Assembly (NCBI GenBank): GCA_963727805.1
Contig: CAVSHF010000003.1
Coordinates: 992,001-1,056,000 of the forward strand
DNA: 64,000 nucleotides
Source: an uncultured Nitrospiraceae bacterium
Lineage (GTDB): Bacteria > Nitrospirota > Thermodesulfovibrionia > Thermodesulfovibrionales > Dissulfurispiraceae
Direction of reading: 5' to 3'
Shown: positions 32,329-40,695 of the stretch, piece by piece
Position numbering within the stretch: the first letter of the stretch is position 1
How the letters are laid out: each line of letters begins with the position of its first letter
The notes under the pieces: generated by a model
What the model was told of the DNA's origin: nothing
The model's database searches: none
What the model saw: the letters and a program-made list of their open reading frames with translations, nothing else
Program-made: the position numbers and the translations under genes

Positions 32329-34062
32329 TCATTTAATATTGTGTTTTGCTTTGAGCTTTAAAATCTTCTCTTCAACCCTCTCCTTGACTCCCTCTTCCTT
32401 CTCATGGAACTTTAAGGCATTGTTCCATGCATCGAGCGCTTCGTTGGGATTTCCCATCGCCTCATAAACATCGCCAAGATGCTCATAGAGAACAGGATCG
32501 TCATTGACCGATCCGAGGGCTTTCCTGAGATACTTGAGTGCTTCCTTTTGTTTGCCGAGCTTGAAATAAACCCAACCGAGGCTGTCGATAATATAGCCGC
32601 TGTCAGGTTTGAGATCGAGCGCTTTCTGAATAAGGGACAGTGCCTCCTGCAAATGAATCCCCTTGTCCGCGTAACTGAATCCAAGATAATTCAGGGCATC
32701 TGCATGCTTCGGGTTGATCTCAATCACCTTTTTCAGAGAGGCAACCATATCATCAAAATGGCCAGTCTTCTCGTCCAGGACTGCCGCAGTGAAATAGAGC
32801 TCATCATTGTCTTTGAAGAGATCGAGTCCCCTTTTTAAAACCTCTTCGGCCTTCTTGTAATCCTTCGCCTGAATATAAATGTTACCAAGCTGGCTGAAAA
32901 TCTCAGGTTTCGTCTGATCGAAGGTAAGTAGTTCCTCGTAGACCTTCGCAGCATCAGAAAGATGGTTCAGCTTCGTGTAGATAAACGCCAGCGTCAGGAA
33001 GGCATTTAAGTTCTTTGGATCCAGGACAAGTATCTTCTTAAGTTCAACGATTGCCTCATCATAGCGTTTCAGTTCATCAAGGGCAAGGGACAGATAATAG
33101 TGAGCAGCAATATCATCAGGCTTGGCAGTCGTGACAAGCCTAAACTCAGAAACAGCCCTGTCATACTCATGTTCCTGAAGATAGAGCATTCCAAGCTTGG
33201 CATGAATGTCTACATTGGGGATATTTCTGGCGATCTCTTCAAGTTCCTTGACCGCCTTGTCGTATGACTTCCCTGAAATATACAACTGGGCGAGTCGCTC
33301 CCTAATAAAGACATCCTGGGGATTCAACTCCAAAGCCTTCCGATAATACTCCTCCGCTACCTTTAGATTGCCCTTTATCTCATTCACCAGCCCGAGGTTT
33401 AGATATGCCGCCTCAAAAGATGGGTTGATCTCGATAATTTTTTTAAACTGCTCCTCGGCAGCCTCATATTTCTTTTTTTCTACATAGATCGTACCAAGAT
33501 AATAGATAGCCATGAGATTATCAGGAGCCTTATCAAGGACTTGCTGGAAGAATTTCTGGCCCTTCTCGAAATCATGCTTCGAAGCATAGAGAACCCCGAG
33601 GAAGAGAAGTGTCTCGGTCTTTTCCGGTTCAATCTTCAAGGCCCTTTCATACATGGCGATGGCATCATCAACTCTCTTCTGCGAATTGTAGAGTTCTCCA
33701 AGGTACATCATTGCGGGAACATAATCAGGACTTTCTTTAAGAACTTCCTCCAGCCTTACAATCGCTTCCGTTATTCTGTCCAATTTCACCAGCATGCGTC
33801 CGGTCTGGGTCTTGAGGTAAGCCGATGACGGGTCGAATTTGAGCGCATTCGCGTAATTGTTCAGCGCTTCTTCCCACTTACCGTTGATCTCATTTTCGTA
33901 TCCAAGCAGGTATTCAATATCTGCCTTCTGCTGGACAGGGATTGGAAGATTTTCAGTCGTGCCACCCGAGGTTTGTATTTTTTCGGCTGCACTGCATGAA
34001 ACGGAGACAAAAACAGTCACAAAAAAAAGTAGAAATAAAGAAAGAGCTAATTTTACCGCCAT
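32329..34062 (-). CDS. Exported tetratricopeptide repeat protein
   Basis: Signal peptide, many TPR units, ALNYLGF and IIDSLGWVYF; usual position upstream of ispE. Confidence 0.9.
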   Translation of the reverse strand: MAVKLALSLFLLFFVTVFVSVSCSAAEKIQTSGGTTENLPIPVQQKADIEYLLGYENEINGKWEEALNNYANALKFDPSSAYLKTQTGRMLVKLDRITEAIVRLEEVLKESPDYVPAMMYLGELYNSQKRVDDAIAMYERALKIEPEKTETLLFLGVLYASKHDFEKGQKFFQQVLDKAPDNLMAIYYLGTIYVEKKKYEAAEEQFKKIIEINPSFEAAYLNLGLVNEIKGNLKVAEEYYRKALELNPQDVFIRERLAQLYISGKSYDKAVKELEEIARNIPNVDIHAKLGMLYLQEHEYDRAVSEFRLVTTAKPDDIAAHYYLSLALDELKRYDEAIVELKKILVLDPKNLNAFLTLAFIYTKLNHLSDAAKVYEELLTFDQTKPEIFSQLGNIYIQAKDYKKAEEVLKRGLDLFKDNDELYFTAAVLDEKTGHFDDMVASLKKVIEINPKHADALNYLGFSYADKGIHLQEALSLIQKALDLKPDSGYIIDSLGWVYFKLGKQKEALKYLRKALGSVNDDPVLYEHLGDVYEAMGNPNEALDAWNNALKFHEKEEGVKERVEEKILKLKAKHNIK

Positions 34063-34096
34063 AATAATATCACCCCGGGGTCTGATTCAGAATCCT

Positions 34097-34125
34097 AAAA
34101 TAAATGGGGTCCCATCGGACCCCAT
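34097..34125 (-). terminator. Intrinsic terminator closing the glgP-rSAM-peptide unit
   Basis: ATGGGGTCC-GATG-GGACCCCAT-TTATTTT on the minus strand. Confidence 0.8.
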
Positions 34126-34153
34126 GTGACTTGACTGCGATAGTCTTAAATGC

Positions 34154-34216
34154 TCAGCAAGAACCTTTACACTTGCAGGTCAGTGACACTTTTTTAGAAA
34201 CTTTTTTGATGATCAT
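34154..34216 (-). CDS. 20-aa Cys-rich peptide MIIKKVSKKVSLTCKCKGSC, candidate rSAM-modified RiPP precursor
   Basis: Translated by hand; AAGGGGG RBS 7 nt before the ATG; 45 nt downstream of the rSAM/SPASM stop and just before a terminator. Confidence 0.72.
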   Translation of the reverse strand: MIIKKVSKKVSLTCKCKGSC

Positions 34217-34261
34217 CGGGTTTCCCCCTTCTTAGGGTATTGACAGGCTTCATGCCCGTTT

Positions 34262-35440
34262 TTATTTAATTATACCATAATGAAAGCATTTGTAAAGGTC
34301 ACGCTCTATGCCTGCAACCATGTCAATTCCCTCCTTATCTTTACCCGAAATCATGGAGGCGCGATAACGACATCCCCCTCTGCAATCATCAATCACCCCG
34401 CACAATAATCGGGCGCACTCAAGGTCCTGCAGGTTCACCGGCGTAATTCGCTTCCAGGCATCACTTAGCCCTTTGCCGATGGTTCCAGCAGGTCTGTGGG
34501 AATAAAATGCACATTTACAGATTTCCCCCGCAGCGAGCACCGCTGCAAGGTGAAGACCGCACCCAAAACCCTCGCCGCCGCCATGCAATCCCCCGCCGAA
34601 TCCATAATCGAGAAACTTGCCGCCGATCGCGGGAGTCACCTGAAGCATGTCATTATCTTTAAATCTCCCTTCCGGGCAGGGCACATCTACAGTCCAATCA
34701 CGGATGCCAAGCCCTTGAAAAAGATGTTCCATCTCATCGAACTCGGTCTGATTCTCACGGTGTACCATGGTCGCAACCGAAACCGGCATTCCAAAACCAA
34801 GAGCCATCTCAACAGTCTTGATTACCTTCCGAAAAGTTCCTTTTCCCCTGAGTGTATCGTGACCGTGCTCCATTCCGTCGATACTTAACTGTATCTCGTC
34901 AACATGCAGTTTACTTAAAAGGTTTTGATCAAGCAGAAGACCGTTGGTAAACAATATTTTTCTGTACGCATATTCAGGCAAGAGAGCATTGACCTCCTCA
35001 AAATGGCTGTGCATCAGCGGTTCGCCGCCAGTAATCAATAGGCGGAGTCCTTGCATGTTTTCGAACTCATCAAGCACGGATTTCAATTGCGGAATTGTCA
35101 GTTCCCTATTTCGTGGAACTCCAATGTAACAATGCCGGCACCTCAGATTGCACTTGTCGGTAATTTGAAGTTCGAGATAACGCAATGAGGGCGCTGGAGA
35201 CAAGTTAACAGGTGGCCGTTTTATAGCAACAGGATTTGTGGTTAATATCCCTTCAGAGAGGCAATACTCGATAAATTCAGTCTCAGCTTCATTTGGATCG
35301 CCCCCTTCCAGAGTCGTGCACTCCCTCAGATAGCAGAAAGCCCCGTCATCAAGCTCATACAGTTCGTCTTTCTTTATGTCATAGAGAGACGGGATTTCGA
35401 GCCATTTCAGGACGAACCCTTCGGAAAGACGATATCTCAC
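34262..35440 (-). CDS. Radical SAM/SPASM protein with probable N-terminal RRE (PqqD-like) domain
   Basis: CNLRCRHC, ITGGEP; SPASM-type C..GEICKC..C..C..CRGGC..C; about 70-aa N-terminal extension ending EFIEYCLSEGIL. Confidence 0.88.
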   Translation of the reverse strand: MRYRLSEGFVLKWLEIPSLYDIKKDELYELDDGAFCYLRECTTLEGGDPNEAETEFIEYCLSEGILTTNPVAIKRPPVNLSPAPSLRYLELQITDKCNLRCRHCYIGVPRNRELTIPQLKSVLDEFENMQGLRLLITGGEPLMHSHFEEVNALLPEYAYRKILFTNGLLLDQNLLSKLHVDEIQLSIDGMEHGHDTLRGKGTFRKVIKTVEMALGFGMPVSVATMVHRENQTEFDEMEHLFQGLGIRDWTVDVPCPEGRFKDNDMLQVTPAIGGKFLDYGFGGGLHGGGEGFGCGLHLAAVLAAGEICKCAFYSHRPAGTIGKGLSDAWKRITPVNLQDLECARLLCGVIDDCRGGCRYRASMISGKDKEGIDMVAGIERDLYKCFHYGIIK

Positions 35441-37951: not shown

Positions 37952-39448
37952 ATGACCGAACTACATATGCCGGCTTTCCCTGACGATCATGAGAAAGAAG
38001 TCTATCAGGTGATCATCAGCAGGCTTGAAGGTGCGCAGATCTCCGATGCCAAATACCGGCAGAGGCAATTTGAACTGATTGAAAAGGGAATAGGCGGGTT
38101 CATTCTCTTTGGCGGCGTCAGGGAGGAAATAAAAAAATTTCTAGCCGAGTTGCAGTCTCTCTCTCGCATCCCGCTTTTCATCGCTGCAGACATTGAACGC
38201 GGTGTAGGGCAGCAGGTTCAGGGAATGACTTCCTTCCCTTCCCACATGGCCTTTGCCGCGGCTATCGACCGGATAAAACAACAAGATCTCACTCTGCTTC
38301 ATCAGACAATCGAAGCAACAGCTGCCGAGGCAAGAGACATCGGTATCAATATGCCGCTCATCCCGGTCCTTGACGTAAACAGGAATCCTGATAATCCGAT
38401 CATATGCACGCGCGCCTTCTCGGATGATCCTGAACTAACAGCATGGTTCGGTTTCAACTATATCAGAATACTCGAAGGTAAAGGTCTTATTAGCTGCGCT
38501 AAACACTTTCCCGGGCATGGCGATACATCAACCGACTCCCATATTGCGCTGCCAGTGATTCGCAATAATAGAGACGATCTCATCAGTGTGGATTTATTCC
38601 CCTTTCGCATGGCCATTAAAGAAAAAGTAAGCAGTATTATGATCGGACACTTAAGTGTGCCTGCTCTCGATTCAAGACCTTCTAGCCTTTCACATAAAAT
38701 CATAACAGGCCTGTTAAAAGATGAGCTGGGTTTTACAGGTCTGGTGCTTACCGATGCCCTGAATATGCATGCCCTCAGGGAGTTCGGCGATGTTGGCCTG
38801 GAGTGCCTAAAGGCCGGTGCCGATATCCTCCTGCATCCTGACAATCCTAATGCGATGGCTGTAGAGTTGCTGTTAGCGCTCAAAGAAAAAAAGCTTGATC
38901 CCGGAATTCTTGACGCTATCGTCAAAAAGATCATCGATGCGAAGGCGGTCCTTAATCATGGCGCCGCTCCAGCGATCGATTTTGAGCGGCATGCGGTCCT
39001 GTCGAAAATGATCTCCCAAAAAGCAATCACATTGATCAAAAGTGCTCAAGGGCTTTTGCCTTTGTACGATTCCAGCGGAGTTCGTATTGTTTTTTCGGGA
39101 GAGAGTAAACATTTCGAGATCACTCCGCTAAAGGACTTCTTCTCTCCTTCTGGCGATTCGAATATCTTGCTGATTGCAATCTTTACGAGTGTTGCTGCCT
39201 GGAAGGGATCATCGGGGATCAGCAATGAGGAGAGGCTGAAATTAACTGGCCTTCTCAGAAGGGCGCGGAGGTCCATCGTCGTCTCCTTCGGAAGCCCTTA
39301 TGTGTTACGATATTTTAAGGATGCCGATGTCCTGATTGCAGCTTACGACCCGACAATACAAGCACAGCATGCAGTTCTGAATTGTTTGCGCGGAGCAAGT
39401 ACTTTTACTGGAAAGCTTCCCATCCATATACCCGAGGTGTCGACATAA
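37952..39448 (+). CDS. nagZ: GH3 beta-N-acetylhexosaminidase
   Basis: AADIERG, KHFPGHGDTSTDSH and TDALNM motifs. Confidence 0.88.
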   Translation: MTELHMPAFPDDHEKEVYQVIISRLEGAQISDAKYRQRQFELIEKGIGGFILFGGVREEIKKFLAELQSLSRIPLFIAADIERGVGQQVQGMTSFPSHMAFAAAIDRIKQQDLTLLHQTIEATAAEARDIGINMPLIPVLDVNRNPDNPIICTRAFSDDPELTAWFGFNYIRILEGKGLISCAKHFPGHGDTSTDSHIALPVIRNNRDDLISVDLFPFRMAIKEKVSSIMIGHLSVPALDSRPSSLSHKIITGLLKDELGFTGLVLTDALNMHALREFGDVGLECLKAGADILLHPDNPNAMAVELLLALKEKKLDPGILDAIVKKIIDAKAVLNHGAAPAIDFERHAVLSKMISQKAITLIKSAQGLLPLYDSSGVRIVFSGESKHFEITPLKDFFSPSGDSNILLIAIFTSVAAWKGSSGISNEERLKLTGLLRRARRSIVVSFGSPYVLRYFKDADVLIAAYDPTIQAQHAVLNCLRGASTFTGKLPIHIPEVST

Positions 39449-40695
39449 AGCTTGATCTTTCCCCATATGTCCAGGTCTTCAAGAACCGACGCATAGCCGT
39501 TGTCACCCTTCTCGGCTTCTCCTCAGGTCTCCCTTTTCAGTTGACTGGAGGCTCGCTGCAGGCGTGGATGGCGGTAGACGGCATAGACCTCCGCACTATC
39601 GGCATTTTTTCTCTCGTGGGCCTGCCCTATATCATAAAGTTTCTCTGGTCGCCGCTAATGGACAGGTTCGTTCCACCTTTCCTCGGCAGAAGACGAGGGT
39701 GGATGATCTTAACCCAGCTCTCCCTGGTCCTGGGCATATGCGCCATGGCCTTCAGCGCTCCATCCCAAGCCCCCGTCCTTTTAGCAGTGCTTGCCCTGGT
39801 GGTCGCCTTTTCTTCGGCCTCTCAGGACATTGTCATTGACGCATACCGCACCGACGTTCTTCATGAAAAAGAAAGGGGGGTCGGTGCAGCAGTCTCCGTC
39901 ATGGGTTACAGAATAGCCCTAATCGTATCGGGGGCATTTGCCCTAGTGCTTTCCGACCAGATCGGATGGCGAAACACATATCTCTTCATGGCCGGAGTAA
40001 TGGGCATAGGACTTATAGCGGCTGTGATTGCAGAGGAACCCGCCCTTTCCGTTGTCCCGCCGCGAAGCTTGAAAGAAGCGGTTTGGGGACCTCTCAAAGA
40101 CTACTTTACCAGATCGTCGGCAGTCTCGCTGCTTGTCCTGATCATGCTATACAAATTAGCCGATGCCTATTCCACTTCCTTGATAACAGCATTCCTCATA
40201 AAGGGGATAGGCTTTACAGCCACCGAGGTCGGCACCATCAATAAGGGGCTCGGAATGGCTTCGCTTATTTTCGGGGCCATTTTTGGCGGAACCCTGATGG
40301 TAAAGCTCGGCCTCTTCCGCTCGCTGCTCTACTTCGGCATCTTACAGACGGTTTCGAATCTTTCGTTCTCGGGTCTTGCACTGATAGGGAAAAGTTACGA
40401 GATGCTTATCTTTGCCGTAGCTTTCGAAAGCCTGACCAGCGGCATGGGCACAGCGGCCTTTGTGGCGCTTATAATGACGATCTGCAACCAGCGATTCAGC
40501 GCAACTCAGTATGCAATGCTTTCATCCCTTGCGGCATTAGGTCGAATACTCATTGCTCCGACTTCGGGGTATCTCGTCATGTCGGTCGGTTGGCCGGCCT
40601 TTTTCTTCATCGCAACCCTTTCAGGGATTCCCGGGCTGATCATACTCTGGAGACTCAAGGATACAATCCTGGCATTGAAGCACGAGGGGGATTAA
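39445..40695 (+). CDS. ampG: AmpG-family muropeptide MFS transporter
   Basis: LGFSSGLP, KFLWSPLMD, GRRRGW, SASQDIVIDAYR and SATQYA motifs. Start uncertain: ATA 39445 after GAGGTG, or TTG 39382. Confidence 0.92.
   Translation: MKLDLSPYVQVFKNRRIAVVTLLGFSSGLPFQLTGGSLQAWMAVDGIDLRTIGIFSLVGLPYIIKFLWSPLMDRFVPPFLGRRRGWMILTQLSLVLGICAMAFSAPSQAPVLLAVLALVVAFSSASQDIVIDAYRTDVLHEKERGVGAAVSVMGYRIALIVSGAFALVLSDQIGWRNTYLFMAGVMGIGLIAAVIAEEPALSVVPPRSLKEAVWGPLKDYFTRSSAVSLLVLIMLYKLADAYSTSLITAFLIKGIGFTATEVGTINKGLGMASLIFGAIFGGTLMVKLGLFRSLLYFGILQTVSNLSFSGLALIGKSYEMLIFAVAFESLTSGMGTAAFVALIMTICNQRFSATQYAMLSSLAALGRILIAPTSGYLVMSVGWPAFFFIATLSGIPGLIILWRLKDTILALKHEGD

Follow-up and report, generated by a model that had tools for sequence, protein, structure and literature searches.

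What is made by the short, cysteine-rich reading frame that follows a radical S-adenosylmethionine (rSAM)/SPASM enzyme gene in the genome of an uncultured Nitrospiraceae bacterium? The locus lies in a stretch of 64,000 nucleotides (GenBank assembly GCA_963727805.1, contig CAVSHF010000003.1, positions 992,001 to 1,056,000), hereafter the window, and plain coordinates below are positions within it. An earlier note had proposed a minimal system for a peptide made by the ribosome and then modified after translation (RiPP), in which the enzyme (34262..35440, minus strand, 392 amino acids) modifies a hidden peptide of 20 residues encoded on the same strand at 34154..34216. The gene order given there was confirmed in the sequence: the rSAM/SPASM gene is followed by a ribosome-binding site, the 20-codon open reading frame (ORF) MIIKKVSKKVSLTCKCKGSC with its stop codon, and a terminator. 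We found that the peptide and enzyme genes are inherited together across anaerobic Nitrospirota, along with a third protein of about 110 residues, and the combined evidence points to an undescribed, enzyme-tailored peptide.

The peptide ORF carries a Shine-Dalgarno sequence, AAGGGGG (34230-34224, minus strand), 7 nt ahead of its ATG at 34216, and across loci this site was strong and its spacing constant. In 26 of 30 ortholog loci, the 450 nt beyond the enzyme gene contained a 20-codon ORF with the design M-x-I-K/R-K-V-S-K/R-K-x-x-x-T-C-K-C-K-G/S-S-C, which ends in the tail TCKCKxSC. Of 80 named Nitrospirota loci (those titled Nitrospirota, Thermodesulfovibrionales or Dissulfurispiraceae, plus a few oddly labelled bins), 69 likewise had the peptide ORF just behind the enzyme gene; of the 11 named loci without it, three had less than 120 nt left between the gene and the contig end. 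Variation among 91 distinct ORFs was concentrated at third codon positions, with non-majority fractions of 0.127, 0.132 and 0.434 at positions 1, 2 and 3, respectively. The search pattern, TGYAARTGYAARNNNWSNTGYTRR (DNA, tail plus stop), itself fixes codons 14-17 and 19-20, and residues outside it were also kept: I3 in 90 of 91 copies, K5 as K or R in all 91, and T13 in 89. The length was 20 codons in every copy except one of 19 (genome G033), while the +1 frame was open in 6 and the +2 frame in 35 of the 91 copies. Because the variation falls at third codon positions and residues free of the pattern are kept, the peptide ORF is, judged from its sequence, a real protein-coding gene under purifying selection. 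The peptide contains no signal sequence and no internal in-frame TGA, and had no match among NCBIfam and Pfam models. It is almost never annotated, which shows that 20-codon genes with their own promoter, structured leader and terminator escape gene callers.

To follow the pair across genomes we called enzyme orthologs at E<=1e-100 in 41 related genomes and at E<=1e-60 in a sample of 401 genomes from the phylum. An ortholog was present in 33 of the 41 related genomes, and the other eight held generic rSAM-core matches alone (E 1e-14 to 1e-21). The peptide pattern matched exactly once in each of the same 33 genomes and in none of the eight, in keeping with the conserved neighbouring peptide that the earlier proposal called for, and the reversed control pattern matched 0 of 41. 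In five of the 33 genomes (G029, G030, G031, G033, G034) the peptide gene was unlinked from the enzyme, on another contig or 24 kb off, and these copies were intact, with the strong ribosome-binding site and a terminator-like hairpin kept. Within the phylum sample 160 genomes contained the enzyme and 156 the peptide pattern, with 153 containing both. Seven genomes had the enzyme alone (G279, G050, G075, G334, G387, G215, G223); one of these encodes a variant peptide tail, TCTCKSSC (G279), and the enzyme loci of two are cut by contig ends (G050 and G075). Three had the peptide alone (G082, G184, G376), and G082 holds an enzyme fragment at a contig end. The best rSAM matches in G184 and G376 were at about 1e-26 to 1e-28, and in G376 the peptide still precedes the same tetratricopeptide repeat (TPR) gene as in the window. 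Large families of the phylum showed no copy of the system in this sample (0 of 75, 0 of 28 and 0 of 11 genomes), and presence and absence were mixed within several families and genera, where the genes go together. A second match to the tail pattern in one genome (G242:C41) reads CKCKCCC* in an out-of-context frame inside a larger ORF and was taken as chance.

An ORF of 109-113 amino acids without a Pfam match was observed divergent beside the enzyme in 5 of 16 surveyed loci, and divergent adjacency of the two genes was seen in many genomes of three families (f25, f2, f12). Seven cysteines are invariant in 27 members of this protein (C-x3-C ... C ... C-x2-C-x6-C-x10-C). Its profile found one copy in the same 33 of 41 related genomes that hold the enzyme and the peptide. 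In the phylum sample it was present in 156 of 401 genomes, 149 of which also had the enzyme (149 of the 160 enzyme-positive genomes); 11 genomes had the enzyme without it and seven had it without the enzyme, and in two of the latter (G082 and G140) a contig end carries a fragment of the enzyme. Searches against Pfam, NCBIfam and PDB sequences gave nothing significant, and the ESM Atlas returned "hypothetical protein" clusters from Nitrospirota only. By these distributions the seven-cysteine protein is a third co-inherited component, and by these searches it belongs to no known family; since it co-occurs with the enzyme and peptide, the system can no longer be called minimal, as it had been.

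In the window's own genome the gene for the seven-cysteine protein (114 amino acids; G000:C3:2304255-2304599, minus strand) lies about 1.28 Mb from the enzyme. There it closes the row purF, M29 peptidase, cutA, seven-cysteine gene (G000:C3, about 2304255-2304889) and overlaps the end of cutA; among loci where it is unlinked from the enzyme, it abuts cutA in 18 of 24. CutA and the M29 aminopeptidase were considered as parts of the system and rejected on their differing phyletic patterns (40 and 30 of the 41 genomes, respectively), and they were kept as controls; the M29 peptidase is present in four of the eight system-negative genomes. Two relatives (L067:2573-3019 and L087:2527-2961) carry a Cys-rich DUF1284 protein in the divergent slot where the seven-cysteine protein is found elsewhere.

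The enzyme gene begins with a GTG at 35440 and its ORF ends at 34262. Its start lies 3 nt past the stop codon of the glgP-like ORF (TAA, 35446-35444), as had been reported, and is sound because the orthologs begin with MRYYLS at the same point. The rSAM core spans residues 84-270 (34631..35191, minus strand), is supported by Pfam and NCBIfam matches, and was the sole Pfam domain seen (Radical_SAM PF04055, 73.9 bits with a cut-off of 29.5); its cysteines, C97-x3-C101-x2-C104, were invariant in an alignment of 16 orthologs. A Cys-rich, SPASM-like region follows (34286..34561, minus strand), recognized from Cys conservation and PDB profile alignments, in which the set C294-x10-G305-x4-C310 ... 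C342-x4-C347-x5-C353-x3-C357 ... C385 was invariant or nearly so in the same 16 orthologs. The SPASM seven-cysteine motif is Cx9-15Gx4C ... Cx2Cx5Cx3C ... C, and the C342-C347 spacing departs from its Cx2C, being x4 here and x1 in other families. A further cysteine, C255, was kept in 15 of 16 orthologs.

The best relatives of known structure are peptide maturases. The ortholog profile matched SkfB (2e-21), PqqE, MoaA, CteB (positions 78-356) and anSME (93-374); the CteB and anSME alignments extend across the SPASM-like region, and the SkfB match is confined to the rSAM core (88-235). An AlphaFold2 model of the enzyme (mean predicted local distance difference test, pLDDT, 80.8) had its best fold matches in SkfB (Foldseek 4.7e-15), CteB and SuiB. 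The 69 NCBIfam matches were all weak, fell on the core and scored far below their cut-offs (best score WgkB, 106.7 bits with a cut-off of 650). All 120 listed homologs bear generic names ("radical SAM protein"), one of them from Dissulfurispira thermophila, and the ESM Atlas returned generic rSAM clusters. Enzymes across the family are about 50% identical.

The first 82 residues (35195..35440, minus strand) form a separate N-terminal domain, which folded alone with a pLDDT of 83. Foldseek matched it to TbiB1 (5v1v; TM 0.63, E 4e-3), lasso B1 (6jx3), SuiB, LynD, CteB and PqqD. The highest Z scores from VIA, over 48,161 chains, were for TigE (7.5), TbiB1 (7.0), 6jx3 (6.9), MibB (6.2) and NisB (5.7), with further scores for PqqD (5.6), MccB (5.5), SuiB (5.2) and CteB (4.8). 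Leader-binding domains dominate this list, and a few unrelated winged-helix proteins occur among them. An RiPP recognition element (RRE) is a PqqD-like winged helix with a three-strand sheet. From the model we accept residues 1-82 as having an RRE-like fold, an assignment made at the level of fold only, and to this extent the earlier proposal of an RRE in the first 70 or so residues stood. The rSAM core, the SPASM-like seven-cysteine motif, the maturases as best solved relatives and the RRE fold together lead us to regard the enzyme as one of the peptide-maturase type.

The peptide gene is predicted to be its own transcription unit with a conserved promoter. A promoter-like site, TTTACA-16 nt-TATAAT (34269..34296, minus strand), agrees with the consensus at 11 of 12 positions, has a TG upstream of the -10 element, and sits within the last codons of the enzyme gene. 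Among 93 distinct upstream regions the consensus order ahead of the ATG was TATGGTATAAT (the promoter region), an A-rich stretch, GGGCATGAAGCCC and CnCTnnGAAAGGGAGGTG. Exact TGnTATAAT was observed in 55 of the 93 regions, mostly 51-67 nt before the ATG, compared with 0.33 in shuffles, and at two of eight unlinked peptide copies. The last codons of the enzyme (DLYKC..YGIIK; 34262-34300, minus strand) serve at the same time as the -35 and extended -10 elements. As TGnTATAAT is kept where the encoded residues change (YGII vs YDIM), the DNA suggests a constraint beyond the protein, and the C-terminus of the enzyme may be under dual constraint.

Two hairpins were observed in the 5' untranslated region (UTR). 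Hairpin 1 (34243..34259, minus strand; stem ACGGGC/GCCTGT, loop AUGAA) showed changes on both sides at all six of its pairs, with a covariation of 0.313 compared with 0.195 for shuffles (0 of 500 reached the observed value) and at most 0.165 for slid controls. Hairpin 2 (34224..34237, minus strand; CCC...GGG, consensus CnCTnnGAAAGGGAGGTG) lies over the Shine-Dalgarno sequence, with CCCU pairing to its AGGG; helices 2 and 3 were 64-73% paired. Rfam returned no family for 33900-34500, the rows being at chance level (E 1.1-6.5). A covariance model of the leader had the peptide locus as its sole good match in the window's own genome (E 1.7e-6), and two weak, identical matches (E 0.19) stood ahead of two copies of a gene that encodes a small, exported Cys-rich protein. 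These copies (C3:910468 and C3:2144107) are identical and encode a signal peptide followed by CACGETCPCD...CSCGK.

The intrinsic terminator (34097..34125, minus strand) has a 9-bp stem, a GATG loop and a T-rich tail, the hairpin with its 4-nt loop running from 34125 to 34104 and being followed by TTATTTT. A terminator-like hairpin followed the peptide ORF in 54 of 91 distinct loci, compared with 2.2 in shuffles. For parts of this stretch there are metatranscriptome contigs from related strains; such contigs cannot show strand, ends or RNA synthesis. One such contig of 151 nt corresponds to 34125-34275 with three differences, including a synonymous change in codon 16 and L12M, and is weak evidence of peptide-gene expression.

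The surroundings of the pair were examined for genes that would export or process a product. In the window, Pfam and NCBIfam scans found no protease or exporter gene adjoining the enzyme and peptide, as had been stated, and the 88 flanking ORFs of 16 loci contained no recurrent protease, exporter or transporter, immunity gene or further tailoring gene. Downstream neighbours in the window are a TPR protein with a signal-like N-terminus, IspE and ribose-phosphate diphosphokinase. Flanks varied among the 16 loci and included the TPR-IspE pair, rubrerythrin, superoxide dismutase (SOD), nitroreductase, pyruvate:ferredoxin oxidoreductase and a heavy-metal ATPase. Genes connected with oxidative stress or metals were seen beside the pair as rubrerythrin (four loci), Fe/Mn SOD (two), nitroreductase (two) and a heavy-metal P-type ATPase (one). 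The gene upstream of the enzyme in the window is glycogen phosphorylase (TIGR02093, 1165 bits). The link to glycogen mobilization that had been suggested is not supported, because glgP lies upstream of the enzyme in 7 of 30 loci, all within the window's own genus. Divergent from glgP are a GH3 beta-N-acetylhexosaminidase-like gene (NagZ type) and an overlapping AmpG muropeptide permease gene (37952-40695, plus strand), a cell-wall recycling pair.

We judge it moderately likely that the rSAM/SPASM enzyme docks the Lys-rich half of the peptide on its RRE-like domain and modifies the Cys tail, giving an intracellular product that acts with the seven-cysteine protein. Most transcription of the peptide gene would start at its own strong promoter and run to the terminator, yielding a mini-mRNA of about 165 nt, with the 5' UTR (the covarying hairpin, then the small hairpin over the ribosome-binding site) controlling stability or translation. 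The Lys-rich first half of the 20-mer would then dock on the N-terminal domain, and the near-invariant tail T-C-K-C-K-x-S-C would be modified by radical chemistry. Since the nearest solved enzymes, SkfB and CteB, make thioethers, we think by analogy that thioether cross-links derived from Cys (one or more, as SkfB, CteB and PapB form them) are the most likely chemistry, and conversion of Cys to thiooxazole, as by SbtM, would be our second choice. The product is probably intracellular, given the absence of leader protease and exporter genes, and the whole modified 20-mer would stay in the cytoplasm. There it would work with the seven-cysteine protein in some conserved cellular task, for instance metal, iron-sulfur or redox handling, and not as an antibiotic; a cofactor-like or metal/redox product is suggested by the near-invariant core, the single copy per genome, the lack of export and protease genes, and the seven-cysteine partner. 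More tentatively, and with a good deal of doubt, the peptide could be a housekeeping cofactor or metal ligand, its three cysteines rebuilt to thioether or thiooxazole by its own dedicated rSAM enzyme, used inside the cell with the seven-cysteine protein. To our knowledge a 20-mer would be among the shortest precursors of peptide-derived cofactor systems.

Several observations weigh against this interpretation. Four genomes (G334, G387, G215, G223) have the enzyme with no peptide within 800 nt, and two of them (G215 and G223) lack both the peptide pattern and the seven-cysteine protein; conversely, G184 (99% complete) and G376 hold the peptide and the seven-cysteine protein with no enzyme ortholog. 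The related genomes are also non-independent samples. At the sequence level the Pfam PqqD model did not match the N-terminal domains of 13 orthologs, and the fold scores are middling, with no Foldseek match at E<=1e-3 and a highest VIA Z of 7.5, a level that the tool calls common. The Pfam SPASM model PF13186 did not match the enzyme either. All of the peptide-modification chemistry is argued by analogy, and the cytoplasmic role solely from the missing export genes. Finally, the eight conserved cysteines in the C-terminal half of the enzyme could make fully ligated auxiliary clusters, which fit a CteB-like thioether mechanism, with its open cluster site, less well.

Other explanations share parts of this evidence. 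The true substrate might be the seven-cysteine protein, cross-linked much as the small subunit QhpC is by QhpD, with the 20-mer in an accessory role, as scaffold or activator or as a second substrate that becomes joined to it. PMC11002830 describes QhpD as an rSAM enzyme that makes Cys-Asp/Glu cross-links. The phyletic pattern of the seven-cysteine protein is the same as that of the enzyme, and the divergent placement of the two genes at 5 of 16 loci and in families f25, f2 and f12 would also fit. However, it is the peptide gene, not the seven-cysteine gene, that lies nearest to the enzyme and does so most constantly; in the window's family the seven-cysteine gene is far away behind cutA, and RRE domains usually bind short leader peptides; we consider such a role for the seven-cysteine protein unlikely. 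Quite unlikely, in our view, is that the peptide goes without modification and acts as a small micropeptide that binds metal or a cluster or has a regulatory part, co-inherited with the enzyme only because both serve one pathway, while the enzyme acts on another target. Its CxCxxxC tail with lysines does resemble metallothionein-like metal sites, two genomes (G184 and G376) keep it together with the seven-cysteine protein where the enzyme ortholog is missing, and a heavy-metal P-type ATPase, rubrerythrin or SOD lies beside the pair in some relatives. Yet an RRE-bearing rSAM/SPASM enzyme followed by a short Cys-rich ORF is the standard layout of maturase and precursor, and 8 of the 41 related genomes have lost both enzyme and peptide.

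The architecture of the enzyme, which is that of sactipeptide and ranthipeptide maturases, would suit an ordinary secreted RiPP, an antibiotic or signal with its protease and exporter genes at other sites in the genome. We regard this as very unlikely: the eight-residue core is nearly invariant though the enzymes have diverged to about 50% identity, there is one copy per genome and the peptide has no signal sequence, and the flanks of the 16 loci are housekeeping genes without a recurrent transporter, protease or immunity gene. It is harder still to credit that the short ORF is untranslated and the conserved stretch a non-coding RNA or an attenuator acting on genes downstream. The conserved structured leader and terminator would be expected of such an element, but the fixed codon length with its one exception, the strong Shine-Dalgarno sequence at fixed spacing, the mostly synonymous changes, the state of the two alternative frames and the persistence of the ORF in other contexts all argue for translation.

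Sactipeptide, ranthipeptide and SCIFF systems have the same layout, while every curated family model tested scored below its cut-off, so that by these models no curated precursor or maturase family fits, in agreement with the earlier note, which had recognized no precursor family. One close likeness is to the SCIFF and ranthipeptide systems (CteA-CteB, Tte1186; PapA-PapB), which likewise set one enzyme beside a short Cys-rich peptide, theirs with RRE, rSAM and SPASM parts and ours with RRE-like, rSAM and SPASM-like ones, and CteB is among the best matches of our enzyme by both fold and sequence. SCIFF systems are also conserved clade-wide in anaerobes and are not known to have a dedicated protease or exporter. 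They differ in that the SCIFF peptide has about 45 residues and six cysteines, compared with 20 residues and three cysteines here, and in that a third, seven-cysteine protein is co-inherited in Nitrospirota. The PapB family model NF047865 gave 54.7 bits on the enzyme with a cut-off of 340, and no SCIFF maturase model was among the 25 best of the 69 NCBIfam matches, all far below their cut-offs. SkfB of the SkfB-SkfA pair is the best solved relative by sequence and by Foldseek. Unlike SkfB-SkfA and other sactipeptide synthase systems, the pair described here has no export or immunity operon, and the StsB-family sactisynthase model NF045574 gave 62.4 bits with a cut-off of 625. The name ranthipeptide is used in PMC10114670, where SkfB is described as a thioether-forming enzyme with Cys as the donor that works on a short peptide, and PMC11002830 describes CteB as linking Cys to Thr.

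Other rSAM/SPASM enzymes resemble this one in single features. SbtM is described, again in PMC11002830, as turning a Cys (or selenocysteine, Sec) within a short peptide into thiooxazole, a step that removes 4 H, and QhpD as forming Cys thioethers within the small Cys-bearing protein QhpC. The SbtM-SbtA pair would offer an alternative chemistry for the Cys-rich tail; the SbtM model TIGR04082 gave 52.7 bits with a cut-off of 350, and the peptide here lacks the in-frame TGA that would encode Sec. Unlike QhpD-QhpC, our loci have no amine dehydrogenase genes, and the seven-cysteine protein matches no family or solved sequence. The systems for pyrroloquinoline quinone (PQQ; PqqA/PqqD/PqqE) and mycofactocin (MftA/MftB/MftC) share a very short precursor, an invariant reactive end, an rSAM/SPASM enzyme and, as is probable here, an intracellular product. 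Their rSAM/SPASM enzymes need a PqqD-type RRE, whereas here the RRE is fused to the enzyme, and PqqD matches the N-terminal domain by fold. In contrast to both, no protease or further tailoring enzymes recur near our pair, and the models for PqqE (TIGR02109, 55.1 bits with a cut-off of 381.35) and MftC (TIGR03962, 76.1 with a cut-off of 265) fell short.

In the open-access and bioRxiv literature we found nothing on the peptide motifs CKCKGSC and CKCKSSC, the papers containing TCKCK or CKCKGS seeming from their titles to be unrelated, and no SPASM/RiPP precursor system of this kind in Nitrospir- or Thermodesulfovibrio organisms. If our interpretation is true, the system would add to anaerobe physiology a conserved part that is new, and perhaps cysteine chemistry that is new as well, and the ortholog in the named species D. 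thermophila means that it may be directly testable there. Were the more tentative cofactor proposal to hold, PQQ and mycofactocin would be joined by a third cofactor system derived from a peptide. A near-invariant core over a phylum-level spread, together with a third protein, is the profile of cofactor-like or housekeeping peptides (PQQ, mycofactocin and the still unexplained SCIFF among them) and not that of antibiotics.

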